In this document: positions 141-14,990 of the stretch, one piece after another
Position numbering within the stretch: position 1 is the first letter of the stretch
How the letters are laid out: every line of letters begins with the position of its first letter
From: a virus
Strand: one strand, 5' to 3'
Length of the DNA stretch: 17,734 bases
Virus genome (UHGV): UHGV-1681308
Position numbers and translations under genes: made by a program
Notes under the pieces: generated by a model
The model's database searches: none
Told to the model about the DNA's origin: nothing
Seen by the model: the letters and a program-made list of their open reading frames with translations, nothing else

Positions 141-617
141 ATGACAGAGCGAGAATTGCGGCTCCGGCTGAGGCGGCTCCTGGGTACGGACAGGGGACTG
201 CCGGTCGAGAAGCTCGCTGCAGAACTGACGACACACAAGGTGGACATATTGCCGTACATGACGTGGTTGTGGAAGACACATGGACAGAAGTTCAGAGTGC
301 TGCTGACAAAGAAAGTGGCAGACTACGCAAAAGCGGCGGAAAAGGAAAAACAGAGCCTTCCGCAGCTGATCGTAAATGCTGGCACAATTTTCTTGCGACT
401 CTCAGAAGGCTCGCTTGAATCCGACAGGACTATCGAGATACTCGGTGACATGTGCGAACCTTATGCACTGTACTTCTTATTTGCAGGCGTAGGATTGCCC
501 TGCGACAAGTACCGCGCAGCAGCCAAGGAATACGCAGCTATGTTTCCTGACGCAGTGCGTGCTCTGCCTGAACCGTATAAGAAACTCGGAGAGGCTATGA
601 CACATGATACCACTTGA
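141..617 (+). CDS. hypothetical protein (158 aa), first gene downstream of the element right end
   Basis: ATG at 141 preceded by AGGAG (131..135). Stop overlaps the start of the next gene. No motif recognised. Confidence 0.6.
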   Translation: MTERELRLRLRRLLGTDRGLPVEKLAAELTTHKVDILPYMTWLWKTHGQKFRVLLTKKVADYAKAAEKEKQSLPQLIVNAGTIFLRLSEGSLESDRTIEILGDMCEPYALYFLFAGVGLPCDKYRAAAKEYAAMFPDAVRALPEPYKKLGEAMTHDTT

Positions 618-3102
618 CAAGCATGACTTGACTATGCTGCATGTGCTCAGCTCAGAGAAACTGATGCTGAAGTCGCTGAAGGCTGCCAAGGCAGGGCAGG
701 AACTGTTTCCACCGAGACGTGTACCGCATCTTGATCTGCTGTGGCGACACTTCATACGTTTCGCCATACAATCCAAGAAAGAAGGGCACTGGCTGCAGTG
801 GGACAGACAGGCGTATGTAGCTGACTGCCTCGAAGAACTGAAGCAGCGTGACGACATCAGCGACGAATGCAAAGCGCGATTCCAGGCAATATGCGTACAG
901 TATATCGGCGCTGAGCCATTGGACGCCGAGGCAGGCGACAAGCTGCTGCTGGAAGCTGTCAACGAAGCTATCAGAGCACAGATCAGCAGAGCCGTGTACA
1001 ATTCCGAGGCTTTCGACGGCATCAGACAACTGGTCAATAAAGGCGTCGCGCTGAAGGAGTCGTTGGAGACAGCTGACGAGAAGCAGAAATTGTTTGTGAA
1101 TCCGCTGCTTGAAGTCGAGACTTACCTGCATGTGTTGCCTAAGATGCCTACAGGTGTTCGCTACTTCGACAGAGTCACCAACGGCGGCATGTCTGAGGGC
1201 GAGGTAGCTTTGATTGCTGGATTGATGGGCGGTGGAAAGTGTCTTGGGAAAGACACACCCGTTCTCATGTACGACGGAACTGTAAAGAAAGTTCAGGATG
1301 TACGTGTAGGTGATCAGCTTATTGGTATGGACTCTACACCAAGAACAGTAATGTCTTTAGGTAGAGGTCGCAGTGAAATGTATAAAGTCACACCAGTAAA
1401 AGGTGATCCATTTACAGTTAACAGGTATCATATTCTGACAATGATATGCAGTGGTCCTGTAATATGGAAAGGAGTCAGATATAAACCAGGTGATCTTATT
1501 GATATCTGCGTTGAGGATCTGTACAGGCAATCCGACAGCTTTAAGTCACTTCTTAAGGTTATCAGAACAGGAGTGAACTTTAAACCTAAGGAGGAGCCTG
1601 AGTTAGATCCTTATTTTGTAGGTTTGTATTTGGGAGATGGAACGAAAGGAAAAGCCCAGATCACAACTGGTGACACAGAAGTTGTCGACTACTGTGTTAA
1701 GTATATGCAAGGTTTAGGTTTTGCATGTAATGTATCCAAAGATACTAGACATAACTGCGTTTATGTCAGTATAAGTAGAGCCAGCAACAAAACCGAAGGT
1801 GCGTTAACTATAATTCGTAGGAATACGTTTATAGATGATGAGAAGCGAATTTTGGATGTGTATAAGACTGGAAGCAGAGAGATTCGCATGAAAATACTTG
1901 CGGGTCTAGTTGACTCTGATGGATACACGCACCATGGTTTCCATGAGATAGTTACGAAGTATAGTAATCTAGCAGATGATATATGCTTCGTAGCGCGATC
2001 ATTAGGGTATGCAGCATATGTTAAAAAGTGTGAGAAAAAATGCTATAATACAGGTGCTGCAGGTACGTACTATAAGGTCAGTATATCTGGAGATTTCTCA
2101 GACTTACCTGTTTTGTTACCTAGACATAAGTTGTCAAAACGTAAGCAAGTCAAATCTGTGCTGAGGACAGGATATACTATAACCAAATTACCCGAGGATG
2201 AGTATTATGGGTTTACCATAGATGGTGATCACAGATTTCTTCTGGGTGACTTTACAATTACACATAACACAGCAACAGCAATCCAACTGGTAGGCAGTCA
2301 ACTGCTTGTAGGCAATCCAGTAGCATGGTTCACATTCGAGCAGCCGTTCGATCAGGACCTGATGCAGCGTATGGTATCCTTCATCACAGGCTACAGCCTG
2401 GACATCATACGTGGACGGGAATTCAAGGATCTGCCCGAGGACATTCGGGCAAAGTTTCTCACATTGAGCAACCAAATGTCGGACAAACTGATAGCAGCAG
2501 ACTTCTCGAACAACAACATGCTTGACAAGAACGATCCCGAGGATGATGGCTCTGTTTACAGTCTGTGCAAACGACTTGACATATGGGCTGACCAAGGCAA
2601 AGTGCCAAGCTACATCATGTTCGACTGGGTAGGCGCGGCAGTGAAACGCCTAGCGGCTGTACGCAGCATAGACATCGGGCAGATCACCAACTACATTGCG
2701 CTTGCCAATGAGATCATCGACGGTCTCGTACAGCTTGCCAAGCAGTACCATACGCGTGTAATCTTCTTTCATCAGCTGGATCCGGCGATCAAGAAGTCGC
2801 CTCCGTCCAGGAAGCCTACGACTGTGGAGCTTCAGATGATGAAGACGATGTCGAACTACACGCAGTACGCAATGGCAATCGGCAAGCGTGACGAAAATCA
2901 GCGCTGTTGGTTCATCTGCGACAAGTGCCGTAACAGCTACCCGTCAGAATGCGTCATCGAGCTGGATGGTGCACACGCCAAGTTCAATCTTCTGGAAGGA
3001 TATGCACCAGGCCGCAACGGACAGTTCATAAATATCAACGAGCTGCAGGAGGAGCTCAACGACAACAGTGACACGGCAGACAGCTACCAGCCTATAATCT
3101 GA
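604..3102 (+). CDS. intein-containing P-loop ATPase, probably a DnaB-like (SF4) replicative helicase; extein about 489 aa plus intein 343 aa
   Basis: Walker A GLMGGGK is followed immediately by Cys, and the extein resumes with T after the intein (reconstituted GLMGGGKT). C-extein has a Walker B-like YIMFDWV and a DnaB H4-like RVIFFHQLD. Extein size and P-loop position fit DnaB; a terminase or other RecA-fold ATPase is not excluded. Confidence 0.7.
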   Translation: MIPLDKHDLTMLHVLSSEKLMLKSLKAAKAGQELFPPRRVPHLDLLWRHFIRFAIQSKKEGHWLQWDRQAYVADCLEELKQRDDISDECKARFQAICVQYIGAEPLDAEAGDKLLLEAVNEAIRAQISRAVYNSEAFDGIRQLVNKGVALKESLETADEKQKLFVNPLLEVETYLHVLPKMPTGVRYFDRVTNGGMSEGEVALIAGLMGGGKCLGKDTPVLMYDGTVKKVQDVRVGDQLIGMDSTPRTVMSLGRGRSEMYKVTPVKGDPFTVNRYHILTMICSGPVIWKGVRYKPGDLIDICVEDLYRQSDSFKSLLKVIRTGVNFKPKEEPELDPYFVGLYLGDGTKGKAQITTGDTEVVDYCVKYMQGLGFACNVSKDTRHNCVYVSISRASNKTEGALTIIRRNTFIDDEKRILDVYKTGSREIRMKILAGLVDSDGYTHHGFHEIVTKYSNLADDICFVARSLGYAAYVKKCEKKCYNTGAAGTYYKVSISGDFSDLPVLLPRHKLSKRKQVKSVLRTGYTITKLPEDEYYGFTIDGDHRFLLGDFTITHNTATAIQLVGSQLLVGNPVAWFTFEQPFDQDLMQRMVSFITGYSLDIIRGREFKDLPEDIRAKFLTLSNQMSDKLIAADFSNNNMLDKNDPEDDGSVYSLCKRLDIWADQGKVPSYIMFDWVGAAVKRLAAVRSIDIGQITNYIALANEIIDGLVQLAKQYHTRVIFFHQLDPAIKKSPPSRKPTTVELQMMKTMSNYTQYAMAIGKRDENQRCWFICDKCRNSYPSECVIELDGAHAKFNLLEGYAPGRNGQFININELQEELNDNSDTADSYQPII
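1240..2268 (+). mobile_element. intein (343 aa) with LAGLIDADG homing-endonuclease domain, inserted in the Walker A P-loop
   Basis: N-terminal splicing block CLGKDTPVLMYDGT begins with Cys at 1240. Two LAGLIDADG motifs: YFVGLYLGDGTKG and KILAGLVDSDGYTHH. C-terminal block GFTIDGDHRFLLGDFTITHN is followed by the +1 nucleophile Thr at 2269. The intein DNA looks visibly AT-richer than the flanking extein. Confidence 0.85.
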
Positions 3103-3954: not shown

Positions 3955-5334
3955 ATGCAAAAAGACATTACAAGATCAACACAGACAACATCCTATGTGA
4001 GAACAAGTATAGTAGACAACGAAGCTGCAGGAACTGATTTCCAGCAGGTTTTCCCATATCAGAAGAAGCTGTTCGGTCGCATTCTGTGGCCCAGCAAGGA
4101 CAGCATCGTGCGTATTGTACCCGGCAATGATGGTACACATACATTCCCGCAGGTAATCAACGCAGATACATGGACCACAGACGGTGACCAGACAAATTAC
4201 CTGTCTGACACTTTCTACATGACATACACTCTCAGCGGTTTCGGTGACAGCAAATGCGATATCTGCAGCAACCTGAAGCCAGGCAGTGATGAAGCCGCTA
4301 TGTATCCTGAATCCCCGCTCAATTACTTCTGCAACAAGATACATCGTACCATGCGGTATGTCTTGCAGGGTAAGGGCACGAAAGTCAGGTACAATGACAA
4401 GTGGCGCATGTGGACAGGGCTGCAAGGTACATTGCCGTTCCCGAAACCTACACTCATGTTCCAGGCTATCTGTGTACATCTGTGCGGAAGGGACTGTCTT
4501 AAGGAGGGCGAGGGAACTGATCCGGCACCTTTGTATGGCGTGATAGGCATCAATAACAAGACATCCATTGGCGAGCTCGTCAAGGCGCTTGTCGCACCCA
4601 TGGACAGACGCAGACCCATCGGTACAAACAACAACACATATGGTGCACTTGCAGAGGCGGCAGGCAACGTACTGTATCTGAACAGCGTCATAGACACTCA
4701 AGAGCACAAGTATCTTCAGCCCAGCATTCAGAGTTCGTCTGCACCTGCAAACAGCTGGGAACCTCAGCAGTACGACCTGACAGAGGACCTGTGCAAGCAG
4801 CTGTGGGTTCCCTGGGATAGAGTGCTGAAATACTATACAGTAAAAGAGCAGCTCGAACTTATAGCGTCTGAGTTTGGCGCTGATACTGTGAATTACGTGT
4901 TCTCTCTGTCTCCGCAGTGGGAAGGTCTGCAGATTCCTGAGCGCATTGCCGCTGTAGGTATGGGGCAGTACGCAGAGAATGCTCAGAGAGCTCCTTCATA
5001 TAGTGCCTTTGGACAGAACGTGCAGAAACAGGCATTTGGCAGTGCTCCCAGACAGGCAGCGCCAGCTTCAACGGCAAGTGCTGTTCCTGGGCTCAGCAGG
5101 GCTGCTCAGCCGTCTTTTGCGCTGCCGAATACGACACCTTTAGCCGGTGGCACTGCAAGTCCTGCTGTAAGCATGGACAGCATCAAAGCAGAGCTGGCAA
5201 AGATCAGAGCGGCCGCCAATACTGCACCCAGTGGAGCGGGAGCATTGGCAAGTGCTATGTTGAACGATCTCGAACTGCCGCCTGATGATGACGTCTACGA
5301 AGCTACAGGTGAGGAAAGTCTGGGAATCGAATAA
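3955..5334 (+). CDS. hypothetical protein (459 aa) with a low-complexity Ala/Ser/Pro region and an acidic C-terminal tail; possibly an ssDNA-binding or other replication accessory protein
   Basis: Strong RBS AAGGAG at 3944..3949 and ATG at 3955. C-terminus ...LELPPDDDVYEATGEESLGIE follows a disordered A/S/P-rich segment. Function is guessed from the tail and the replication-gene neighbourhood only. Confidence 0.6.
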   Translation: MQKDITRSTQTTSYVRTSIVDNEAAGTDFQQVFPYQKKLFGRILWPSKDSIVRIVPGNDGTHTFPQVINADTWTTDGDQTNYLSDTFYMTYTLSGFGDSKCDICSNLKPGSDEAAMYPESPLNYFCNKIHRTMRYVLQGKGTKVRYNDKWRMWTGLQGTLPFPKPTLMFQAICVHLCGRDCLKEGEGTDPAPLYGVIGINNKTSIGELVKALVAPMDRRRPIGTNNNTYGALAEAAGNVLYLNSVIDTQEHKYLQPSIQSSSAPANSWEPQQYDLTEDLCKQLWVPWDRVLKYYTVKEQLELIASEFGADTVNYVFSLSPQWEGLQIPERIAAVGMGQYAENAQRAPSYSAFGQNVQKQAFGSAPRQAAPASTASAVPGLSRAAQPSFALPNTTPLAGGTASPAVSMDSIKAELAKIRAAANTAPSGAGALASAMLNDLELPPDDDVYEATGEESLGIE

Positions 5335-5346
5335 CTAAAACATTCA

Positions 5347-5368
5347 GCCGGGTACTTATGTGCCCGGC
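5347..5368 (+). promoter_or_regulatory. GC-rich stem-loop between the upstream stop and the RBS of the first pentapeptide-repeat gene
   Basis: gccgggta (5347..5354) pairs with tgcccggc (5361..5368) around a 6-nt loop. It lies 3 nt upstream of the AAGGA RBS at 5371..5375. No U-tract follows, so it is not a classic intrinsic terminator. Confidence 0.35.
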
Positions 5369-5383
5369 ATAAGGACAAACAAG

Positions 5384-6406
5384 ATGAAAACAAAAAGAGT
5401 ACTGAAGAAAAACGCAATCAAGGCTTACAAAGCCTTCAACAGTGACCTGACTTGCAAAGGCTTCCGGTATGAAGTCGGCAAGGAATACCACCATAAAGGC
5501 AAGCTTGAGCTGTGCGAGGCAGGCTTCCATGCCTGCCCCAAACTGACTGACTGCTTCAATTTTTACCCGTTCGATAAAACTGAAACCAGAGTGGCCGAGG
5601 TGCTCGTCTGGGGTAAAGTCGAGTACGAAGACATAGGTGACAAGCTCTGCGCCTCAAATATCAAGGTAGTCAGAGAACTTACATGGACAGAGGTGTTGTC
5701 TCTGTGTAACAGCGGCTGCCGTAACAGTGGCTACCGTAACAGCGGCTGCCGTAACAGTGGCAACGGTAACAGTGGCAACCGTAACAGTGGCAACCGTAAC
5801 AGTGGCAACCGTAACAGCGGCTACGGTAACAGCGGCGATTGTAACAGTGGCAACTGGAATAGCGGCAACAATAACAGCGGCAATGGTAACATCGGCCACC
5901 GTAACAGCGGCTGCCGTAACAGTGGCAGCTGGAACAGCGGCGACGGTAACAGTGGCTACTTAAATACTCCGGCACAAAAGTATAGCTTTATTTTTAACAA
6001 ACAAGTTGAAAAGTCAGTCTTGGCTCAGATTGAGTTTCCGGAGTTCATGTGCTTCACTTTGTCAAAATGGATACCTGACTTCATAATGTCACAGCAGGAG
6101 AAAAAGCAGCACCCTGAATACGTTACAACAGGCGGTTATCTCAAGAAGTACACATATAAGGAAGCCTTCAGGAAGTCCTTCGAGGAAGCCAGACGCAAAC
6201 CTGACTGGCCCGAACAGCTTGAGAAGCTGAAATCACTGCCTAACTTCGATGCCAAGGTATTCGAGGAGATATCAGGCATCAAATCAAACGCACTTGGAAT
6301 CAGCGCTAAGGAGCTGGCAGACAAGGCAAAGACAGCCATGGAAGTCACAATGGCGGACATAGAGAAGGTATTCGGTTGCAAAATCAAGATTGTAGAGGAG
6401 AAGTGA
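5384..6406 (+). CDS. pentapeptide-repeat protein (N-x-G-x-x type, about 17 pentads) with conserved Cys/His-containing N-terminal domain and conserved C-terminal domain; paralog 1
   Basis: ATG at 5384 with AAGGA at 5371..5375. Central region is NSGCR NSGYR NSGCR NSGNG NSGNR NSGNR NSGNR and so on. N-terminal VLKKNAIKAYKAFNSDLTCKGFRYEVGK...CEAGFHAC and C-terminal KQHPEYVTTGGY...PDWPEQL...LPNFD.KVFEEISGIK are shared with 10835..11797. Confidence 0.8.
   Translation: MKTKRVLKKNAIKAYKAFNSDLTCKGFRYEVGKEYHHKGKLELCEAGFHACPKLTDCFNFYPFDKTETRVAEVLVWGKVEYEDIGDKLCASNIKVVRELTWTEVLSLCNSGCRNSGYRNSGCRNSGNGNSGNRNSGNRNSGNRNSGYGNSGDCNSGNWNSGNNNSGNGNIGHRNSGCRNSGSWNSGDGNSGYLNTPAQKYSFIFNKQVEKSVLAQIEFPEFMCFTLSKWIPDFIMSQQEKKQHPEYVTTGGYLKKYTYKEAFRKSFEEARRKPDWPEQLEKLKSLPNFDAKVFEEISGIKSNALGISAKELADKAKTAMEVTMADIEKVFGCKIKIVEEK
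5706..5957 (+). repeat. about 17 tandem copies of a 15-bp unit (GTAACAGYGGCNNNN) encoding the pentapeptide repeats, including three consecutive identical units
   Basis: Direct reading: cgtaacagtggcaac occurs three times back-to-back around 5765..5815, flanked by near-identical units. The period of 15 nt (5 codons) keeps the frame. Confidence 0.85.
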
Positions 6407-6407
6407 T

Positions 6408-6806
6408 ATGTCAGCAAATGCTTTCTATCCGCACACAGAAAGGGAACAGTTAGCTCCTTTTGCAAACAAACGTGTGTTGGTAACCGGAAAAGTGCAGCAT
6501 ATTGCAGCGTGGATGTCTGGTAAAAGGTGGGGGTTGCGAGCTACGCTGAAGCAGTGCAGAGTCAAGCATGGTAATATTCAAGTAAGTGTCGACCATTTTA
6601 CAGTCAACGTTGGTAAGCAGTTTATTGCCGTTCAAGCTAAAAGGAACACAACAGTATCTTTCTATGCCACAGTTAAGGCGTACCAGCCTGACAAACAGCT
6701 GAAATATGTACCGGATGATGTCAAGATCGCTCTTGGTTTTACGCCAAGAGTACCATCATATGGTATCAAATGGCCTACAAGGGTCGAGGTGCTCCATCGA
6801 TGCTAG
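6408..6806 (+). CDS. hypothetical protein (132 aa)
   Basis: ATG at 6408 is 1 nt after the stop of the preceding gene, with GAGGAG at 6395..6400. No motif recognised. Confidence 0.6.
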   Translation: MSANAFYPHTEREQLAPFANKRVLVTGKVQHIAAWMSGKRWGLRATLKQCRVKHGNIQVSVDHFTVNVGKQFIAVQAKRNTTVSFYATVKAYQPDKQLKYVPDDVKIALGFTPRVPSYGIKWPTRVEVLHRC

Positions 6807-7288
6807 TACGTGTAATTCCAAGGTACCTTATGGTACAGCTGTATAACAAGCATGTAGAAACTGGCGATACGGATGTGTTTCTTGACGGAAACCACTTTAT
6901 TTCCATTTACAGCACCAGAGATATGTCACCTTTGCCGGATCATCCACACGTATTTAAATTGATGTGCGATGATCTGACACTTGCTGATATGCGCATGTTC
7001 ACAGAGGATGGCTGGAATCATGTTACACTGTTTGATGAGGACATGGCAGACAAGATCGCAGCTTTCATAAAGAGCATTCCTGATACATGCAACTCACTTA
7101 TAGTGCACTGTGATGCAGGTGTCTCAAGATCAGGTGCTATAGGAATACTTGCCAACAGATACTTTAACGATGAAGGCAGCGCTGACGACGAGAAGTTCCA
7201 GCATGATTCGATGCCTTGGCTATCGCCAAACTCGCACATATTGATGCTTCTCAGACCCAGACTGCAAAGAAAGGAAACAAATGTCTAA
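6800..7288 (+). CDS. dual-specificity / protein-tyrosine-type (CX5R) phosphatase
   Basis: Active-site signature VHCDAGVSRSGAIG matches the cysteine-phosphatase P-loop (V)HCxAGxxR(S/T)G. Start is uncertain: the longest ORF begins at 6770 without an RBS; ATG 6800 (GAGGTG upstream, overlaps the previous stop) is preferred; ATG 6830 is also possible. Confidence 0.7.
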   Translation: MLVRVIPRYLMVQLYNKHVETGDTDVFLDGNHFISIYSTRDMSPLPDHPHVFKLMCDDLTLADMRMFTEDGWNHVTLFDEDMADKIAAFIKSIPDTCNSLIVHCDAGVSRSGAIGILANRYFNDEGSADDEKFQHDSMPWLSPNSHILMLLRPRLQRKETNV

Positions 7289-8234
7289 CTTAATCAAAAT
7301 CGGACGCAACAACGAACTCAAGAGAGCCACATTGGAGCTGCCTAAATACGGGGAGCTCACGGACGAGCGCGTAGTACAGGAAATGCGCGGCGTATTTGAC
7401 GGATTCGAATACGACCCAGACACTCAGGTCGAGACTGTGTTCAAAACAGTCGAGCAGATCGAGACTTATGCAGCTGAAGTCAGTAAAGAGCTTGAACAGG
7501 CCGACAATGACTTCAAGATGGCAGCAATCACCAATGCCGGTGCCATTGCAGCCAAGCGCTGGCACTTCGGTTTCATGATCAGCAAGTGCCTCAAGGCTTC
7601 CAAGTATGGTGAAGGGGTCGCCAATAAGATTGCAGCCGCAGCCAACATCTCGCTGCCGTATCTTTATCAGTACAGAGCAGTCGGCGACAATCTCAGTATC
7701 AGAGACGCTTACATCCTTGGTATGTATGGCGCTGGCTGGGATTGTATTCGTCAGGTTGCTGCAGTAAATGATCCCGATACAAGACAGAACCTCATTCAGT
7801 ACTTTGTCCAGTCTATCACGGACTGGAACAACAGTGTCGCCAAAGAGCAGGCTAAAGAGGCACTCAAGTCAGCATTGTCCATGCTGAAGCATGGTCCAGC
7901 CGAACTTGATGTTTCCAGTCCGGCAAAGATTGAGACAGCTGTCAACTTTGAATCCGAAGCTCCTGAATTCATGGAAGCAAAGAAACAGCTGCAGAAGCTG
8001 ATGACAGCATGCAGAGGCATTGTCAAAGATAACAAGCTGTCGCCGATGCTGAAGTCCTTTGGCGACTGTTATCTTGCCGATAATGTCCCCGATGCCGAAG
8101 CGCACCTCGATACACTGCACGAAGATGCGACAGCAGCATTGGAGCTTCTGCAGCAGGTTGAGAGTGTGTTGCCGCAGCTCAAGGAAGAAGTCACAAGCTT
8201 GCAGAATATGGGGCTCAGCCATGCAGACAGTTAA
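7281..8234 (+). CDS. hypothetical protein (317 aa)
   Basis: ATG at 7281 with AAAGGA RBS. Protein-like composition, no motif recognised. Confidence 0.6.
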   Translation: MSNLIKIGRNNELKRATLELPKYGELTDERVVQEMRGVFDGFEYDPDTQVETVFKTVEQIETYAAEVSKELEQADNDFKMAAITNAGAIAAKRWHFGFMISKCLKASKYGEGVANKIAAAANISLPYLYQYRAVGDNLSIRDAYILGMYGAGWDCIRQVAAVNDPDTRQNLIQYFVQSITDWNNSVAKEQAKEALKSALSMLKHGPAELDVSSPAKIETAVNFESEAPEFMEAKKQLQKLMTACRGIVKDNKLSPMLKSFGDCYLADNVPDAEAHLDTLHEDATAALELLQQVESVLPQLKEEVTSLQNMGLSHADS

Positions 8235-8460
8235 TCTTGATGTAGATGTGTCGGACCTTATGTGTCCGCACTGCGGTTCTGTCGACAGTGTCAAGTTGAT
8301 CGACCTTGGACCCGAACGAGATGCAGAGGGCGAATACGGTAACGTCAGATGCACCTGCTATGAGTGCGGCTGGTCGACATGTGACATGGATACAGCAGAG
8401 GACGCAGTGTACGCTTTTATCATCGGTCTCGACTGTGATATCAGGCACGACATAATATGA
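8221..8460 (+). CDS. small zinc-ribbon protein (about 79 aa)
   Basis: CPHCG ... CTCYECG four-Cys pattern. The ORF is open from 8059, but that part overlaps the preceding gene, so the start is placed at ATG 8221. Stop overlaps the next start (ATGA). Confidence 0.45.
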   Translation: MQTVNLDVDVSDLMCPHCGSVDSVKLIDLGPERDAEGEYGNVRCTCYECGWSTCDMDTAEDAVYAFIIGLDCDIRHDII

Positions 8461-8657
8461 AACCGATAGGCTACGGGAAGCTCACCAAGTTCCTCAAAGC
8501 CACAGCACCGATATCAAAGCAGTTTGAGAACGAAGTTCTGCGGGATGAGCGTCTCGCAGAACTTTTTTCGTGTGTAGCTGAGGTTGTGCTGCCGAAAGCT
8601 ACAGAACCGCAGAGATGGGCGTTGTGGCAGTGTTTCAAGGGTCTGAAAGGCGTTTAA
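8457..8657 (+). CDS. hypothetical protein (66 aa)
   Basis: ATG at 8457 overlapping the upstream stop. Ends 27 nt before the IStron left end. Confidence 0.45.
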   Translation: MKPIGYGKLTKFLKATAPISKQFENEVLRDERLAELFSCVAEVVLPKATEPQRWALWQCFKGLKGV

Positions 8658-8683
8658 CAACGCCCTTTAACCAGTGATGGCTA

Positions 8684-9110
8684 TCGAACAAGAAAGTGAA
8701 TTGCTAATAGATCCCAAGAGCCTCACGACGCCTGTAACAAGGATCGAAAGAGAAAACAAAGAAGTGAGGATACCGCAAGGCGACAGTAAGCCTAAACGGG
8801 AGTGACAACGGACGTTTAGCAGCCGAGCCATGCGTTCGACAGAACGCCAGCGCATGGAAGGTTCATCGACTATCCCAGATGGGAGTACCCGAGTAGCCAT
8901 GCTGCGACAGCAGCAAAAGTAAGGGGAAGCACTCTGGCTCAGGAATGAGTCAATGATATAGTCAGTGCTTCATGGAAACATGAAGAGTGGTCTCCTATTG
9001 ACACGGAGAAACCTGCTGTTACCCTGGCAAGGTACAGTGAACAGAACCATGGTCTCATTAAATGCAACATTAATTTGACGTTTTGATTTTCTGTATAAGG
9101 ATGTATATTA
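8684..9110 (+). ncRNA. putative group I intron ribozyme core (IStron intron module)
   Basis: R-like element GTTCATCGACTATCC (8861..8875) and S-like element GATATAGTC (8955..8963) can form P7 (GACTA/TAGTC). Several hairpins lie between them and upstream (ctaaacg/cgtttag at 8792..8819, gcgttc-gaca-gaacgc at 8832..8847, gctgc-gaca-gcagc at 8901..8914). No ORF. Not verified by a covariance model. Confidence 0.5.
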
Positions 9111-9132
9111 TCTGTATACAATAAGGAGTGCC

Positions 9133-10218
9133 ATGTACAGAGCCCACAAGATACGCATAGATTGCACAAGAGAGCAGCACAGCCTGTTAATGCAGACTGC
9201 TGGCTGCGCTCGTTATGCGTACAATTGGGGACTCGATAAGTGGGGCAAGATGTACGAAGCCTGGAAGGCTGATGCCTCGCAGGAGAAACCGGACAGATAT
9301 TCTGTAGCCAGACAGTGGACACAGGAGAAACCAGAGTGGGCAAATAAGACATCCAGAAGTCCAGTTGACTACTCTTTTATCAACCTCGGCACCGCCTTCA
9401 AGAACTTCTCAAGGCGCAAAACAAAGTACCCGAAGAAGCACAAGAGGTCACAGGGAATCTCATTCCAAGTGGCACCTGACAAGGCAGCTATAGTTGACAA
9501 CCAACTTAGACTGCCTAACATAGACTACGTGAAGCTCCGAGAGACTCCACGCTTCCAGGGCAAGATAACAGGCTACACAGTTCAGTACATAGCTTCCCAC
9601 TGGTACGTTACAATCGCCTTCGACTGTCCAGACGTCCCAAAAGAAGCACCGGAGTCCGTCGTCGGTATCGACGTAGGACTCCAGCACCCTGCTGTAGCCT
9701 CCGATGGCACCAAACTAGAGCTCCCCATAGAGAAGCTCCAAAAGCTCGAAGTCAAGAAACGTAGAGCACAGCGAGCCCTCAGCAGGAGCAAGAGAAACTC
9801 CAATGCGCGAAAGCGCAAGCGTACCAAACTCCAGCGTATACAACAGAAGATTACCAACATCCGTCAGGATGCAGCCCACAAGTTTACAACTACGGTGAGC
9901 AAAAACCACGCCACTGTAGTCACAGAAGATCTGGACATAAGTGAGCTCCAAAAGAAGGCCCCCGCACGTTCAGTGCGCAGAGCATACAACAGCTCCCTTA
10001 TGGGAACCATTCTTTGGCAGATCTCGTACAAAGCGGTGCACCATATCAAGGCACCAAAGTACTTTCCGAGCACCAAGAGATGCTCAACTTGTGGACATGT
10101 GAAGGAGGCTATGCCTCCGAACGTCAGGACATATCATTGCGACCACTGCGGTACACATCTCGATAGAGATGAGAACGCAGCTCGCAACTTGATGTTGCAA
10201 CCGTGGGTCACACGGTAA
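9133..10218 (+). CDS. tnpB: TnpB (OrfB) RuvC-like RNA-guided nuclease, IS200/IS605 family
   Basis: 361 aa. N-terminus MYRAHKIRIDCTREQHSLL...RYAYNWGL. RuvC-I GIDVGL, RuvC-II VVTEDLD, zinc finger CSTCGH...CDHCG, RuvC-III DRDENAARNL. RBS AAGGAG at 9123..9128. Confidence 0.9.
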   Translation: MYRAHKIRIDCTREQHSLLMQTAGCARYAYNWGLDKWGKMYEAWKADASQEKPDRYSVARQWTQEKPEWANKTSRSPVDYSFINLGTAFKNFSRRKTKYPKKHKRSQGISFQVAPDKAAIVDNQLRLPNIDYVKLRETPRFQGKITGYTVQYIASHWYVTIAFDCPDVPKEAPESVVGIDVGLQHPAVASDGTKLELPIEKLQKLEVKKRRAQRALSRSKRNSNARKRKRTKLQRIQQKITNIRQDAAHKFTTTVSKNHATVVTEDLDISELQKKAPARSVRRAYNSSLMGTILWQISYKAVHHIKAPKYFPSTKRCSTCGHVKEAMPPNVRTYHCDHCGTHLDRDENAARNLMLQPWVTR

Positions 10219-10326
10219 GAGGCGCGGTGATGGTACAGGCAGCATTCGCTGCAGGTACCAGATGATCCGCGAAGACAATCCGGTGTAACGCCGGATGAGA
10301 TCATGACAGTGCGTGTAACACATCGA
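10120..10326 (+). ncRNA. putative TnpB omega RNA (reRNA) scaffold overlapping the tnpB 3' end, plus about 16 nt of flank as guide (gcgtgtaacacatcga)
   Basis: Scaffold conserved with the copy at 1..119, including a hairpin at 10232..10259 with compensatory stem changes and a second conserved hairpin atccggtg-taa-cgccggat. Conservation ends exactly at 10310. The 5' boundary is a guess. Confidence 0.5.
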
Positions 10327-10834
10327 CATATAGTGTCCTGTATCTGCAGAGCAGCAGCAAACCTGCACTACATCCACGAGGGTATCGCACCCTTCTATTG
10401 GGATGGCAACAGGGCAGCTGCTGTGATGAATTGTCTAGGTATAGAACAAGATGTAGCCGCTAAAGGAAAGCGCAGACTGCTAGTGCATTTGATGTGTCTG
10501 CTGGGTGAACCTGCCGGACTGATGTTCAAGGTATCTCTGAGCTGCAACATGCTGGAGTACTTGCTGGGCAAACATTTTGGCGTCTCTTTTCGAAAGTATA
10601 ATGCAGCGGCTGAAGAGATCGCCGGTTGTGTCTTCAAGTGCACAGTAAGTGAGGACACAGCAGGGGCCTATCTAGCGGATTTCAGCGCAACACAAGCTAT
10701 GAAAGACCACAACAGAAAGCTGGCAGAGATGCGCATAAACCCAAGAAAATGTAAAACACCTGCAATGCCATGTGCATCCTGTACTAAAACCAGGGCTCAG
10801 TGCATTTTGGCATGTAAAGTTAAGGACAAACAAA

Positions 10835-11797
10835 ATGAAAACAGAAAAAGTACTGAAGAAAAATGCAATCAAGGCCTATAAAGCCTTCAACAGCGACCTG
10901 ACCTGCAGAGGCTTCCAATATGAAGTCGGTAAGACCTACAGACATATATTCCTAATCCGCTGTTGCGAGTCAGGATTCCATGCTTGTGAAAGGCTGGTTG
11001 ACTGCTTTGGCTACTATGAACCAAACCAAGCAAAAACTCGAATTTGCGAGGTTCTGGTCTGGGGCGATATTCAGAGGCATGATAAAGACACCAAGTTATG
11101 CGCATCCAGAATCCATATTGTCAAAGAGTTGTCCTGGAACAAAGTATGTCGTCTATGCAATAATACCGGCATCGGCAATCAGGGCTTATATAACTCTGGG
11201 AATTATAACAGTGGAAACTCAAATTCCGGTAACTGGAATGCAGGCAATAACAACAAAGGTAAGTACAATTCAGGTGATTGTAACATTGGTTTAGGTAATG
11301 TAGGCACAGGCAATATAGGCAATAATAACTGTGGCCAATATAATTACGGTCATAGGAATTCCGGAAACAATAACATAGGATGCCGCAATGTAGGAAACTA
11401 CAATACGGGCTACTATAATGTCGGTAACTGGAACAAAGGGTCGTTTAATATCGGCTGCTTCAATACAGCAGATGCCATTGTACATATGTTTAACAAGCCT
11501 GTTGTCGGAATCAGTCCATTCGATATTTTAGTCCCAGGTTTCTGCATCTTTGATACGACAGAATGGGTGTCGGCCAGATGTATGACAGATGAAGAAAAGA
11601 AGCAGCACCCTGAGTACGTTACAACAGGAGGATACCAAAAACAATACGCCTACAAGGAAGCCTTCAGGAAGTCCTTCGAGAAGGCAAAGCGACTCCCAGA
11701 TTGGCCCGAACAGCTTAAGAGGCTAAAGGCGCTGCCGAATTTCGATGTAAAGGTATTTGAGGAGATATCAGGTATCAAGGAAGAGGAACTTATGTAA
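10835..11797 (+). CDS. pentapeptide-repeat protein (degenerate N-x-G-x-x repeats), paralog 2 of 5384..6406
   Basis: ATG at 10835 with AAGGA at 10822..10826; the RBS and first ~110 nt are roughly 90% identical to paralog 1. Repeat region GNYNSGNSNSGNWNAGNNNKGKYNSGDCNIGLGNVGTGNIGNNN... The conserved C-terminal domain ends ...FEEISGIKEEELM. Confidence 0.8.
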   Translation: MKTEKVLKKNAIKAYKAFNSDLTCRGFQYEVGKTYRHIFLIRCCESGFHACERLVDCFGYYEPNQAKTRICEVLVWGDIQRHDKDTKLCASRIHIVKELSWNKVCRLCNNTGIGNQGLYNSGNYNSGNSNSGNWNAGNNNKGKYNSGDCNIGLGNVGTGNIGNNNCGQYNYGHRNSGNNNIGCRNVGNYNTGYYNVGNWNKGSFNIGCFNTADAIVHMFNKPVVGISPFDILVPGFCIFDTTEWVSARCMTDEEKKQHPEYVTTGGYQKQYAYKEAFRKSFEKAKRLPDWPEQLKRLKALPNFDVKVFEEISGIKEEELM

Positions 11798-11807
11798 AGA
11801 AAGGAGC

Positions 11808-12149
11808 ATGAAAGTGCAAGTGACAGAACTTGAAACGAGAGAAGTAACAGTGACACGCTACATACTGACTGAGAAGGTCTTCCACCTTGAAGAGTGCCCT
11901 GATTGGGCTCAGTATGCAGCTGTGGATGATGATGGGACTGCCTATTTTTATATGTGTCCACCTAGTCCCAGTGTACATGGGTATAGGTCTGCCTCAGCGT
12001 GTATTCGGATAGACACCGGTTATTCGCTTTTCGACGCCACCGACTGGCAGCACAGCCTTATCGAGCGGCCAAAGAAGGTACTCGAGGTTACCATGTCGGA
12101 CATCGAGAAGAAATATGGATGCAAAGTCAAGATTGTACGGGAGGAGTGA
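11808..12149 (+). CDS. small CPDWA-motif protein carrying the C-terminal tail motif that is fused to paralog 1 (EVTM.DIEK..GCK.KIV.E)
   Basis: RBS AAGGAG at 11801..11806. ATG 11808 is only 1 nt from the RBS, so GTG 11814 may be the true start. Contains EECPDWAQYAAVDDDGTAYFY, similar to 12685..13287. Ends ...EVTMSDIEKKYGCKVKIVREE, compared with ...EVTMADIEKVFGCKIKIVEEK at the end of 5384..6406. Confidence 0.5.
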   Translation: MKVQVTELETREVTVTRYILTEKVFHLEECPDWAQYAAVDDDGTAYFYMCPPSPSVHGYRSASACIRIDTGYSLFDATDWQHSLIERPKKVLEVTMSDIEKKYGCKVKIVREE

Positions 12150-12151
12150 AA

Positions 12152-12688
12152 ATGACTACAAAAGCATTTGTTACAAAATATGGGACTCAGATTAGCGGTG
12201 ATTTGGTCGATGAGCTGTCGCATCATTCAGATGTTCGTAGTTTCGTTCACTGGCTGCTGCATGAATGCGGCTATCTCGAATCCTTGAAGTTTGACTGGCT
12301 GGTTCAGTTGCTCAGAACCAGAGATGCAGACAGCTTGAGGCCCTATGTTGCCGAAGCTGTACTCAAATCCTGGCAGCAGCCAGTGTCCATCGGTATTCCG
12401 TCATCACTGTCGCCTGAAGCTGAAGCCTTGCTTACGGCAATGATAAATGACCATGAACATACGCAAGATGTGTATGCGCATGCAGTGAACATGAAAGAGA
12501 TCTCTGTGCAGAATGTACAGGTAGCTTATTGCGCCTCACCAGATATCAAGCGTTTGCTGTGGCAAATCCTGCACGGTATTATTGTCTGGAAATCTCTTGA
12601 TTACCGGTTATCAGAAACGTATGTAACACAGCAGGTGCTCAAATATATGCAACCAGTTGTATCTTTGTTTGAGGAGGACCTGGAATGA
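12152..12688 (+). CDS. hypothetical protein (178 aa)
   Basis: ATG at 12152 with GAGGAG at 12141..12146. The longer ORF from 11999 lacks an RBS. Confidence 0.55.
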   Translation: MTTKAFVTKYGTQISGDLVDELSHHSDVRSFVHWLLHECGYLESLKFDWLVQLLRTRDADSLRPYVAEAVLKSWQQPVSIGIPSSLSPEAEALLTAMINDHEHTQDVYAHAVNMKEISVQNVQVAYCASPDIKRLLWQILHGIIVWKSLDYRLSETYVTQQVLKYMQPVVSLFEEDLE

Positions 12689-13287
12689 CTGTAGACGATT
12701 TGGTTATGTTCGATACCAAGAAGCTTCTTGACTTCTTTAAGATAGATCAGTGCCCTGACTGGGCAGAGTGGGTCGCTGTAGATAGTGATGGAACGGTCTG
12801 TTATTATTCTGCTGAACCTACTATACTTAATACTTATAAGGATGAATGGAGGTGTGAAACAGTTAGACATAACTTTCGACCTGTCAGGATAAATGGCAAT
12901 AATATTAAAATTACTGTCGAGGACTGGACAAAAGCGAAAGTCAAGAGGCCTCCTACAGGCAATGAAATGTTTCTTGGTAAGTGCAGAAACATTTATGTCC
13001 ACATGAAAGACTCTAAGTATGTAGTTGCTTTCGAGTGCCGCACAGAGGATACCTATGACAACGATAGCTATTATTTGGAATTGACAGTCGAATTGGCAGC
13101 AGAGATATTCTCGAGAGACTTAGGGCATATCATTGCTGAGTGGCTGGGTAAGGATGTGTCTGTAGAAACCGAAGGTTCACATATTCGCAGTGCTCTTCAG
13201 TCCAGTATACCTGAAGCTTTCTCAGCCGCAGTTACTGATGTTCGTCTGTCATCAGGGCCAGGCACGAAAGGTCTGTGCAAAATATGA
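12685..13287 (+). CDS. CPDWA-motif protein (200 aa), paralogous domain to 11808..12149
   Basis: ATG at 12685 with GAGGAGG at 12671..12677. Motif DQCPDWAEWVAVDSDGTVCYY near the N-terminus. AT-richer than its neighbours. Confidence 0.6.
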   Translation: MTVDDLVMFDTKKLLDFFKIDQCPDWAEWVAVDSDGTVCYYSAEPTILNTYKDEWRCETVRHNFRPVRINGNNIKITVEDWTKAKVKRPPTGNEMFLGKCRNIYVHMKDSKYVVAFECRTEDTYDNDSYYLELTVELAAEIFSRDLGHIIAEWLGKDVSVETEGSHIRSALQSSIPEAFSAAVTDVRLSSGPGTKGLCKI

Positions 13288-13324: not shown

Positions 13325-14665
13325 ATGAAAAAAGGACTCGGAAACCTGCTGGATGCACTCAGTAAGGCAGACGGCGGCGTCAGTATGTCCATTACAGAAT
13401 TCAAAGAAGCCCAGTACGGCATTCCGCTTAAGCATTACTGTTTGCAGTATCTTTTCGGCAGCACCGGGCTCAGGTACGGCGGCTTTTATCTGCTTGCCGG
13501 TAAGCCGAAGTCGTGCAAATCGCCCTTTGCTTTCTTCCTTGCACATCTCAGCTGCGAGAATGATGGCATTGCATATGTGTACGAACTTGAAGGCAAGGCG
13601 TCACCGACGTTGCTGACCAGCATGTTTGCAGACAGGCCCGAATGGCGAGAGGATGGCGGCCCTTTCAAGCTCATCCGAGGACTGACATTGGACGGCGCCG
13701 AGAAGCACCTTACAAAGTCTGTGCTCAAACTTTTCAAGCAGTACGAGGTTTACGATACTCCGCTGCTGATCGACTGGGACTCCATCTCAGGAGCTGCGAT
13801 GTCAGATGTCGTGTCCAAGATCGAGAAGGAAGGCGTAGCCAGTAAAGGCTACTATGAAAAAGCGCACATCATGAAGCATCTGACAGAGAGCTGGGTCGCA
13901 CTTACCAACAACATGCCTGTCGTGTTCGTCGGCGTCTTGCAGGAAAAGGAAAAGGCTGCAGAGGGATGGGCACCTGCAGGCGGACCGCAGAAGTCGTATG
14001 GCGGTGGCGATTCGCAGTTGTTCAAGGCAGGTACATTACTGTCGTTCTCTCACAGCACGCTGCAGAACGGTGCTGGCAAGCTCGTTCGTATCAAGACTGC
14101 ACTGAACGGATTTGCAGACAGCAGAGGCATTGAAGTAAAGTTTGTCTGGGATCAGTTCGGCGACCTTGAGACCGATTCACAGGGGCACAAGTGGCTTTTC
14201 GCAGAGGCGACGGCAAAGTGCCTCGCACAGCCGAAGATCGTAGGCGAGCTCAGAGACATCATTGATGTGAAGATCAATGATTCCGGCGACAGAGTGACTT
14301 GCAAGACGTTCGGTCTTGACAAGGTTACAGCAACAGAGTTCGAGGAAGCCCTGTTTGCGCCTGAGAACGCCAAGGTACTGGAAGATCTGTACAGATACCA
14401 AAAGATAGAAAAGATCAAGCTGCCCTCAGAGTATGCAGCTTACGCCGAGAAAGCAGGAGACAAGGAAGCCGCATATAAAGAGGCGCAGAAGCAGGCACAG
14501 CTCGAAGAGCGTGAGGCCAAGGCTGCGGAAGCTGCCGCAAAGGAAGCAGCCAAGCAGGCAAAACGAGAGGCGAAAGTCAAGAAGTCAGCTGCGGCATCCA
14601 ATCCGTTAGCGGCTTTAGCAGACATGGCAAAGAAAGCTGAGGCATCAGATGCAAAAGCTGAATAA
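13325..14665 (+). CDS. RecA-family recombinase, UvsX-like, with a Lys/Ala/Glu-rich low-complexity C-terminal tail
   Basis: Variant Walker A LLAGKPKSCKS resembles the T4 UvsX GPSKSFKS type. Walker B-like PLLIDWDS. L2-like GGPQKSYGGGDSQLFKAG. YVYELEGKASPTLLTSMFADRPEW resembles the UvsX segment after Walker A. RBS GAGGAG at 13314..13319. Confidence 0.7.
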   Translation: MKKGLGNLLDALSKADGGVSMSITEFKEAQYGIPLKHYCLQYLFGSTGLRYGGFYLLAGKPKSCKSPFAFFLAHLSCENDGIAYVYELEGKASPTLLTSMFADRPEWREDGGPFKLIRGLTLDGAEKHLTKSVLKLFKQYEVYDTPLLIDWDSISGAAMSDVVSKIEKEGVASKGYYEKAHIMKHLTESWVALTNNMPVVFVGVLQEKEKAAEGWAPAGGPQKSYGGGDSQLFKAGTLLSFSHSTLQNGAGKLVRIKTALNGFADSRGIEVKFVWDQFGDLETDSQGHKWLFAEATAKCLAQPKIVGELRDIIDVKINDSGDRVTCKTFGLDKVTATEFEEALFAPENAKVLEDLYRYQKIEKIKLPSEYAAYAEKAGDKEAAYKEAQKQAQLEEREAKAAEAAAKEAAKQAKREAKVKKSAAASNPLAALADMAKKAEASDAKAE

Positions 14666-14990
14666 CAAGCGCGTGTTCTGTACACCTTACGACGATCAGC
14701 GTATCGTGACAGCAAAAATCAAGAACGAAAAACACTATGTACTGAAAGCATGTCCGTTCTGCGGACGCAAGCCGGTAATCGAGACAGTGGAGCCGATATT
14801 CCATGATGATAAAGTCCAGTACTTTGTCTCATGTGCGCACCACGGCTGCGACTGCTACACAAGAACCTATCGCAGCCCAGGTGAGGCAATCGCGAAATGG
14901 AACAGACGCATCAGTCCGCTCGATCGCATTGTCGCTTCTGACTTGAAACGCAGTCTTAAAGCAGCGCAGAAAGAGGCGACAAATGTGTGA
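14649..14990 (+). CDS. Lar-family restriction-alleviation-like small Cys protein (putative anti-restriction)
   Basis: CPFCG ... SCAHHGCDC ... EAIAKWNRR matches the pattern I recall for Lar-family proteins (CPFCG zinc motif, conserved AW-NRR near the C-terminus). The identification rests on recalled motifs, not a search. Confidence 0.5.
   Translation: MQKLNNKRVFCTPYDDQRIVTAKIKNEKHYVLKACPFCGRKPVIETVEPIFHDDKVQYFVSCAHHGCDCYTRTYRSPGEAIAKWNRRISPLDRIVASDLKRSLKAAQKEATNV

Follow-up and report, generated by a model that had tools for sequence, protein, structure and literature searches.

Two paralogous genes in a 17,734-bp stretch of the virus genome UHGV-1681308 (this whole stretch is referred to as the window), gene A at positions 5384-6406 and gene B at positions 10835-11797, may encode early accessory proteins of a large phage family that carry a fast-evolving binding rod; we favor this reading tentatively. 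At the level of sequence, A and B were shown to be three-part proteins, composed of a DUF7666 domain, which is optional in the family, an N-x-G-x-x array, and a C-terminal domain (C-domain), about 100 aa long, which constantly accompanies the array. An earlier reading of the window from its letters, referred to as the original prediction, had placed two related pentapeptide-repeat genes here. Both open reading frames (ORFs) were indeed found, and their proteins were 56% identical over 324 aa (BLASTP, E=3e-118). The observation as a whole was partly confirmed, and its interpretation was partly supported. The features of the two genes were as follows:

5347..5368, + strand: GC hairpin (GCCGGG, 10-nt loop, CCCGGC) shortly before gene A, as read from the sequence
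5370..5382, + strand: ribosome-binding region of gene A, TAAGGACAAACAA
5384..6406, + strand: gene A, 340 aa, pI 9.1, with DUF7666, 17 NxGxx pentads, C-domain and tail; hypervariable lineage
5384..5707, + strand: N-terminal DUF7666 domain of gene A (codons 1-108), with the motif C44-x2-G-F-H49-x-C51 and Y61
5708..5968, + strand: repeat array of gene A, 17 N-S-G-x-x pentads and a cap
5969..6280, + strand: linker and conserved C-terminal domain of gene A (FNK ... TTGGYLK ... LPNFD ... EEISGI)
6281..6406, + strand: C-terminal extension of gene A, roughly 40 residues, not present in B
10821..10833, + strand: ribosome-binding region of gene B, TAAGGACAAACAA
10835..11797, + strand: gene B, 320 aa, pI 8.8, with DUF7666, about 20 degenerate NxGxx pentads and C-domain; stable lineage
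10835..11158, + strand: N-terminal DUF7666 domain of gene B, modelled with an ADP-ribosyltransferase-like fold
11159..11464, + strand: repeat array of gene B, about 20 N-x-G-x-x pentads
11465..11797, + strand: linker and conserved C-terminal domain of gene B

The DUF7666 domain (PF24703) was recognized by its Pfam hidden Markov model (HMM) with 105.8 bits in A and 116.6 bits in B (threshold 27 bits), and the repeats matched Pentapeptide_2 (PF01469) with 48.1 and 64.4 bits, respectively (gathering threshold 26.4 bits). At E<=1, hmmscan returned only these two models for A and B, with no Qnr-type pentapeptide model and no helix-turn-helix (HTH) match. A total of 6702 full-protein homologs was found at E<=0.001; most lengths among those listed were apart by a multiple of five residues, and one contig could carry more than one copy. 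The last roughly 110 residues were conserved as a domain in its own right, of the pattern FNK ... W ... M-T-x-x-E-K ... T-G-G-Y-L-K ... Y-K-E-A-F ... L-P-N-F-D ... E-I-S-G-I, for which no Pfam, NCBIfam or PDB relative was found. The PDB sequence search gave nothing for the B protein or the C-domain profile, and one chance-level match (E=6.6) for the DUF7666 profile.

An exhaustive search with the C-domain gave 609 representative clusters. Among the 91 C-domain proteins scanned, Pentapeptide_2 was present in 81, DUF7666 in 30 and YopX in one, and many proteins were made up of repeats alone (NSGxx, NTGxx or xSTGx) and the C-domain. This distribution suggests that the core module is the NxGxx array with the C-domain, DUF7666 being a frequent, optional head. 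Among cultured phages, gp20 of Roseobacter phage CRP-811 (CRP-811_20, 175 aa) comprised repeats and C-domain, its gene lying between recombination and lysis genes, and C. difficile phage AR1086-1 encoded a 315-aa protein with the full three-part layout; like A and B, the cultured-phage homologs were located in early or accessory regions. Stand-alone DUF7666 proteins had other simple repeats (ATGxxGASS, GNGYG), and their genes lay among small early genes. Moreover, matches in BFVD included giant-virus proteins (Hyperionvirus, Sylvanvirus, Marseillevirus, Megavirus) in which DUF7666-like domains are fused to DUF4116 or ankyrin repeats; the layout of DUF7666 followed by a repeat array may be general across viruses. 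Literature searches on DUF7666 and on Pentapeptide_2 in phages found nothing. When IMG/VR was scanned for a 21-nt motif taken from the conserved 5' end, there were 0 matches, which is uninformative on abundance since the motif demands TTC and the one IMG/VR copy checked, in a related locus (L007), has TTT.

Long and short forms of the protein were both common in the family. The last 30 residues of gene A, which carry the EVTMADIEKVFGCKIKIV motif, were homologous to the C-terminus of the gene at 11814-12149 (BLASTP 57% over 30 aa), and the match extended to the DNA level (6341-6406 versus 12084-12149, BLASTN 79% over 66 nt). The shared tail motif, EVTM-x-DIEK-x-x-GCK-x-KIV (roughly 25 aa), thus ends both gene A and an otherwise unrelated 111-aa gene, and judging from these alignments the long family form looks like a fusion with that tail. 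Comparable short extensions end other family members.

Similarity between A and B was distributed unevenly along the genes. The 13 nt preceding the ATG (TAAGGACAAACAA) were identical, and a codon-wise scan gave a nucleotide identity of 88-90% over codons 1-30 (third positions 75-80%), 48-60% over the rest of the N-domain (codons 31-108), 48-69% in the arrays, about 40% in the linker and 73-81% in the C-domain. BLASTN recovered two segments, 5370-5556 versus 10821-11007 (79%, E=9e-39) and 6098-6282 versus 11594-11778 (80%, E=1e-42), and no match between the repeat arrays. The original prediction had put the ribosome-binding site, N-domain and C-domain at about 85-90% identity; this described the 13-nt leader and the first 30 codons well (about 89%), and was too high for the remainder of the N-domain (overall ~56%) and for the C-domain (overall ~80%). 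It had also described the central repeats as unrelated at the DNA level and different in composition, and on both points it was right. Array A was a 15-bp tandem repeat (TRF, Tandem Repeats Finder: 5706-5956, 16.7 copies, 80% match) of 55% GC with codons that were nearly all AAC/AGY/GGC, whereas array B had 39% GC and mixed codons and was not called as a tandem array by TRF.

Two features of the 5' end were also observed. The 40 nt upstream of gene A, including the hairpin, were kept before A-type copies in four related loci (L006, L007, L008 and L009), and not before B-type copies. Inside both genes, 36 nt from the start, the codons for K-A-Y-K-A-F form a palindrome with a 7-bp stem (AAGGCTT-ACA-AAGCCTT; 5420-5436 and 10871-10887). 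This palindrome sits within a 5' stretch with unusually little change at synonymous sites, and a constraint at the RNA level is possible there.

A and B occupied identical syntenic slots in a 194-kb contig (L006), and genes of both types were also present side by side in one locus of a 192-kb contig's sequence. Over codons 31-108 of the N-domain, identity was 55-60% between the types, 81-92% between positional orthologs, and 74-98% across all A-type genes. By these alignments, A and B were shown to be anciently diverged paralogs at fixed syntenic positions in ~190-kb human-gut phages.

The two lineages differed in the behavior of the array. In A orthologs (340, 340 and 415 aa), the array was the most divergent part, with 53-80% nucleotide identity and whole-pentad indels, whereas most flanking sequence was 80-100% identical, except at codons 261-275, where identity fell to about 62%. 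Among 92 A-lineage pairs whose flanks were at least 97% identical, mean array identity was 64%, and the number of pentads differed in 66 of them. Alleles with identical or near-identical flanks contained from 6 to 24 pentads (24, 18, 12 and 6 units in the pentad maps), and the maps displayed internal deletions (from 24 to 18, 12 or 6), single-unit insertions and block duplications; the nearest relative of A (P0001) was A less two pentads. Every change in A-array length was a multiple of 15 bp and in frame. Read from these alleles, the variation of the A array is one of unequal recombination or slippage among 15-bp units, not of cassette exchange between A and B. Copy-number differences of tandem DNA units between near-identical alleles, as in variable-number tandem repeat (VNTR) genes, were found for gene A only.

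By contrast, B orthologs were all 320 aa long, and their array was the best-conserved part (93-100% nucleotide identity); an identical B protein was found on seven contigs. The ratio of nonsynonymous to synonymous substitution rates (dN/dS) was 0.13-0.37 along the gene and 0.2-0.37 in the array, which indicates purifying selection on the B array and rules out positive selection there. In the same ortholog pairs, dS was about 0.21-0.23 in the B array versus about 0.6 in the N-domain and 0.3-0.4 in the C-domain; codon constraint or a recent exchange between phages are possible reasons for this low dS. The expectation that variation among related phages would be confined to the central array was therefore correct for the A lineage and reversed in the B lineage.

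The ends of the genes had a different history. The 5' segment was 80-100% identical whatever the type, and in two A-type copies of one 192-kb contig the 5' end and 40 upstream nt were 100% identical while the remainder of the N-domain was 81% identical. Moreover, the nearest neighbor of a gene changed between its N-domain and its C-domain. Sequence comparison thus showed the 5' end and the C-domain to be exchanged among paralogs, the genes being mosaic, and it supports conversion among A-type copies. Recent conversion between A and B within a genome was considered and found unsupported, with 5'-end identity between A and B no higher within than between genomes. The mosaic cassette exchange that had been proposed accordingly survives as a mosaic family with exchanged ends, and fails as a cassette swap between A and B, which are old positional paralogs.

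AlphaFold models of both proteins were considered, with pLDDT given as block means. In B, pLDDT was mostly 82-93 in the N-domain (dips to 70-73), 46-74 in the array and 79-88 in the C-domain; in A, it was mostly 62-86 in the N-domain (lower at residues 1-10 and 81-90), about 30 in the array and 54-83 in the C-domain. The array of the B model had one β-bridge residue per five residues. PF01469 repeats have been predicted to form a β-solenoid with a 10-residue coil (PMC9663297), and four prediction methods agree on this solenoid (bioRxiv 10.1101/2024.10.30.621056). Foldseek against the PDB gave nothing at E<=0.001. Across more than 100 family arrays, pentad positions N1 and G3 were nearly invariant (variability of 0.03 bits at N1), whereas variability was highest at positions 4 and 5 (2.5 and 3.3 bits, respectively): position 4 was N/D/Y/S/H, and position 5, the most variable, was W in 26% of cases, then G, R, Y, C and H. 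This pattern fits an Asn-ladder core, Gly turns and two exposed ladders. The net charge was +6 for array A and +4 for array B, and +13 and +10 for the whole proteins (pI 9.08 and 8.84, respectively); in the family, array charge ranged from -10 to +6.

Concerning the DUF7666 head, five residues were invariant (C44, G47, F48, H49 and Y61), all of them present in A and B, and K16, C24, G26-E30, G32-K33, C51 and K87 were near-invariant. A Foldseek search against BFVD matched at least six RIIB proteins (E from 3e-3 to 3e-2). The hhalign comparison of DUF7666 with RIIB alignments gave E=0.0019 over 85 columns, pairing C-x-x-G-[FL]-H-x-C, a conserved Lys and G-K, and 4 of 36 RIIB homologs matched PF24703 (best E=0.0021). 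This evidence, from profiles and from models, is weak but concordant, and suggests a remote relationship between DUF7666 and the C-terminal domain of T4 RIIB. It is this domain (about residues 209-306), marked by the motif T-C-S-x-G-L-H-V-C, that aligns with the whole DUF7666 domain, and RIIB, known as the protector from prophage-induced early lysis, is like A and B an early phage protein. The two nevertheless differ in several respects: the alignment covers RIIB 209-306 only, A and B being without the N-terminal HTH and middle region of RIIB; the shared domain stands at the N-terminus of A and B, ahead of the repeats; and no rIIA partner gene was recognized in the window. RIIB is needed to overcome RexAB and triggers a bacterial gasdermin system (bioRxiv 10.1101/2023.05.28.542683).

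Taken together, these data are compatible with the following scheme. The array would fold as a slender β-solenoid, each coil of which would hold two pentads; the invariant Asn and Gly would form the core and turns, and the surface would be lined by positions 4 and 5, where W, Y, R, D, N, H and C are frequent. Such a rod could serve both as a binding surface and as a spacer between the head and tail domains, and the proteins would be accessory factors acting early on some component of the host, the likeliest target being a host defence or exclusion function. Such a target is suggested by the remote homology between DUF7666 and the C-terminal domain of the anti-RexAB protein T4 RIIB, and by the rapid turnover of the A array, which looks like an arms race. 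The helicase, UvsX-like recombinase and Lar-like gene nearby also count in favor of early accessory proteins.

Several points weigh against this scheme. The turnover of the A array could be a neutral consequence of repetitive DNA, and the B lineage exhibited no diversification. The structure of the repeats was predicted with low confidence (pLDDT of 46-74 in B and about 30 in A), and AlphaFold2 over-predicts solenoids for near-perfect repeats (bioRxiv 10.1101/2024.10.30.621056). The statistics of the RIIB link were weak (hhalign probability 14.6%), and the mechanism of RIIB itself is described as unknown (bioRxiv 10.1101/2023.05.28.542683). Array charge is not conserved in the family, so no single kind of ligand is implied. 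Finally, no annotated homolog points to a function: NCBIfam and PDB sequence searches were without match, and in PHROGs both proteins belong to phrog_14105, whose function is listed as unknown.

The main rival is that the array is a mere flexible or rigid spacer with no binding role and no diversifying selection, the variation of A being neutral slippage or unequal recombination in a 15-bp repeat. We consider it a serious contender, with perhaps one chance in a few of being correct. Indeed, variation followed the repetitiveness of the DNA exactly, with A 80% self-similar and variable and B codon-degenerate and stable; the changes in A were whole-unit indels and duplications; no confident AlphaFold structure was obtained for the A array; and DUF7666 proteins elsewhere carry quite different simple repeats. 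However, a neutral spacer accounts poorly for the essential invariance of N1 and G3 and for positions 4 and 5 enriched in W, Y, R, D and H, which is untypical of linkers. Moreover, the B array was under purifying selection as a specific sequence, and the repeats and C-domain were a conserved module across distant phages.

A more ambitious form of the binding-rod reading, which we regard as rather unlikely, is that the NxGxx array and C-domain are an unrecognized phage binding scaffold that diversifies without a dedicated mutator, the phages keeping a "frozen" B copy and one or more "evolving" A copies against variable host defence or exclusion proteins, with the RIIB-like ADP-ribosyltransferase (ART)-fold head as effector. 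Recombination between in-frame 15-bp units, together with exchange among paralogs, would then make new rod lengths and new surface ladders of Trp, Tyr, Arg and Asp. If true, this would also open a first way into the structure and function of the C-terminal domain of RIIB.

It is also conceivable, at a distinctly lower probability, that DUF7666 is an active NAD+-dependent ADP-ribosyltransferase directed to a host target by the repeats and C-domain, that is, a host-takeover or anti-defence enzyme like AcrF11 or T4 Alt/Mod. The modelled N-domain did have an ADP-ribosyltransferase-like fold, with the split β-sheet typical of ART proteins present in the model. However, no sequence similarity to DUF7666 was found in ART-fold proteins (BC2332/2aua, PARPs, KptA/Tpt1, Arr, AcrF11, DarT), the motif spacing of DUF7666 is much shorter than theirs, and its catalytic acid is unconserved: of a catalytic triad H-Y-E (or R-S-E), the candidate residues H49 and Y61 were invariant, but among 60 sequences the candidate E72 was present in 39 and E74 in 50, the latter being Leu in A and B. 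Enzymatic activity of DUF7666 is uncertain for this last reason.

The proteins might alternatively be virion or host-recognition components, with array variation tuning receptor binding, which we consider improbable. β-Solenoids are common in tail fibres and spikes. The neighbors of A and B, however, were helicase, recombinase, SNF2 and Lar-like genes, and no structural genes were found in the 17.7 kb or in related loci; the placement of the cultured-phage homologs was likewise early or accessory, and the proteins are small and without a recognizable anchor domain.

Slightly less probable again, and largely refuted, is the hypothesis of the original prediction, according to which the proteins would be Qnr/MfpA-like quadrilateral β-helices that mimic DNA against restriction enzymes or gyrase poisons and are diversified by cassette exchange. 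Five-residue repeats are present, as are a phage early region with a Lar-like gene, and the arrays of certain family members are acidic, with a net charge as low as -10. In A and B, however, the repeats matched PF01469, not the PF00805 family, and the basic arrays (+6 and +4) and basic proteins (pI 9.1 and 8.8), with no acidic DNA-like surface, argue against DNA mimicry.

A variable region of a diversity-generating retroelement, suggested by abundant AAC (Asn) codons and by position-4 residues (N, D, Y, S and H) that are all reachable from AAC, was rejected almost outright: no window ORF had a reverse transcriptase domain, no template repeat or second array copy was found in the window, AAC was invariant at position 1, TGG (Trp) was the commonest codon at position 5, and alleles differed by whole-unit indels and duplications.

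Nearly all genes of the window lie on the + strand and together form an early DNA-metabolism module. Besides A and B, the following genes were assigned:

604-3102: ATPase/helicase gene (KaiC/RecA-like), interrupted by an intein with a homing endonuclease
6800-7288: phosphatase-like gene (phrog_5614)
9133-10218: TnpB gene
11814-12149, + strand: 111-aa gene downstream of B, whose C-terminal 30 aa share a tail motif with the end of gene A
13325-14665: UvsX-like recombinase
14649-14990: Lar-like restriction-alleviation gene

An SNF2 gene was also among the early-region neighbors of A and B. The intein of the helicase gene comprises a Hint domain and a LAGLIDADG homing endonuclease in an insert at about 1234-2265; this stretch was unmatched in the L006 ortholog, where the gene was called at just 246 aa. 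The phosphatase assignment rests on a weak, sub-threshold match of ORF 6800-7288 to dual-specificity/tyrosine phosphatase domains (E=4e-5). TnpB belongs to a TnpB-only element of the IS200/IS605 type (1655 bp, 8654-10308), which is cleanly inserted by comparison with the 194-kb relative L006 and divides a 239-aa gene into ORFs 8457-8657 and 10303-10881. The right end of the element (10192-10310) recurs at positions 1-119 of the window with 87% identity, which suggests that a second copy ends right at the start of the contig; L006 holds more copies of the element ends. No RNA family was found in an Rfam scan of the element. The Lar-like gene lies a few kb downstream of gene B, and one relative has two such genes; in L003, a Lar-like gene is at 4135-4506. 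A small second paralogous family (phrog_1972/phrog_21375, function unknown) is dispersed in the region, at 11814-12149 and 12685-13287 in the window and at 543-1307 and 2814-3182 in L006. A duplicated two-gene cassette made of A and B with their downstream genes was ruled out, as 6408-6806 and 11814-12149 are unrelated.

The window corresponds to an entire contig of an ENA metagenome assembly (ERZ773229 NODE_1285), and a related contig carries the label human gut. At the DNA level, the full window had no megablast match in the phage collection, and no cultured phage was close; the syntenic relatives were contigs of 192-194 kb, about 90% identical. Rfam and tRNA scans found nothing, and a scan of 5000-12200 for promoter and terminator consensus gave no more sites than in shuffled sequence. 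PADLOC matched neither A nor B and, among eight neighboring ORFs, only 12152-12688, with a marginal hit to DpdD (E=0.004).

A and B belong to a large, uncharacterized family, with cultured-phage members in Clostridioides and Roseobacter phages and DUF7666 alone in many more phages. The presence of a stable and a hypervariable paralog in one genome suggests that phages can diversify a binding surface by simple means, with no mutator involved, and the tie between DUF7666 and RIIB, together with the ART-like fold, could give a testable lead on RIIB. In practice, the label "pentapeptide repeat" on these phage proteins should not be taken as Qnr-like DNA mimicry.

In comparison with known systems, the genes combine known kinds, namely Pentapeptide_2 solenoids and in-frame tandem-repeat variable genes. 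The repeat is of the same N-x-G-x-x type as in the mycobacterial PPE-MPTR proteins (PF01469), above the Pfam cut-off, and presumably adopts the thin β-solenoid predicted for them, in which a coil comprises two pentads (PMC9663297); both are multigene families with variable arrays. However, PPE-MPTR proteins are secreted mycobacterial proteins, whereas A and B, known here from their sequence, are cytoplasmic early phage genes that have no PPE domain, are flanked by DUF7666 and a new C-domain and, in the A lineage, contain a near-perfect 15-bp tandem array at the DNA level. With Qnr, MfpA and AlbG (PF00805), the proteins share a five-residue periodicity and an expected β-solenoid. The PF00805 proteins, however, are characterized by the consensus A(D/N)LXX, a hydrophobic core, coils of four pentads each and a dimer that is acidic and of the size of DNA, while A and B have the consensus NxGxx (N-[ST/x]-G-x-x), are basic, and gave no HMM or structural match to that class. 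Finally, like VNTR-type variable proteins of bacteria and phages, gene A varied, among alleles that were otherwise identical, in the copy number of a short in-frame DNA unit; it differs from them in that the array changes the length and surface of a predicted rod, not on/off expression, and in that a stable, codon-degenerate paralog is present in the same genome.

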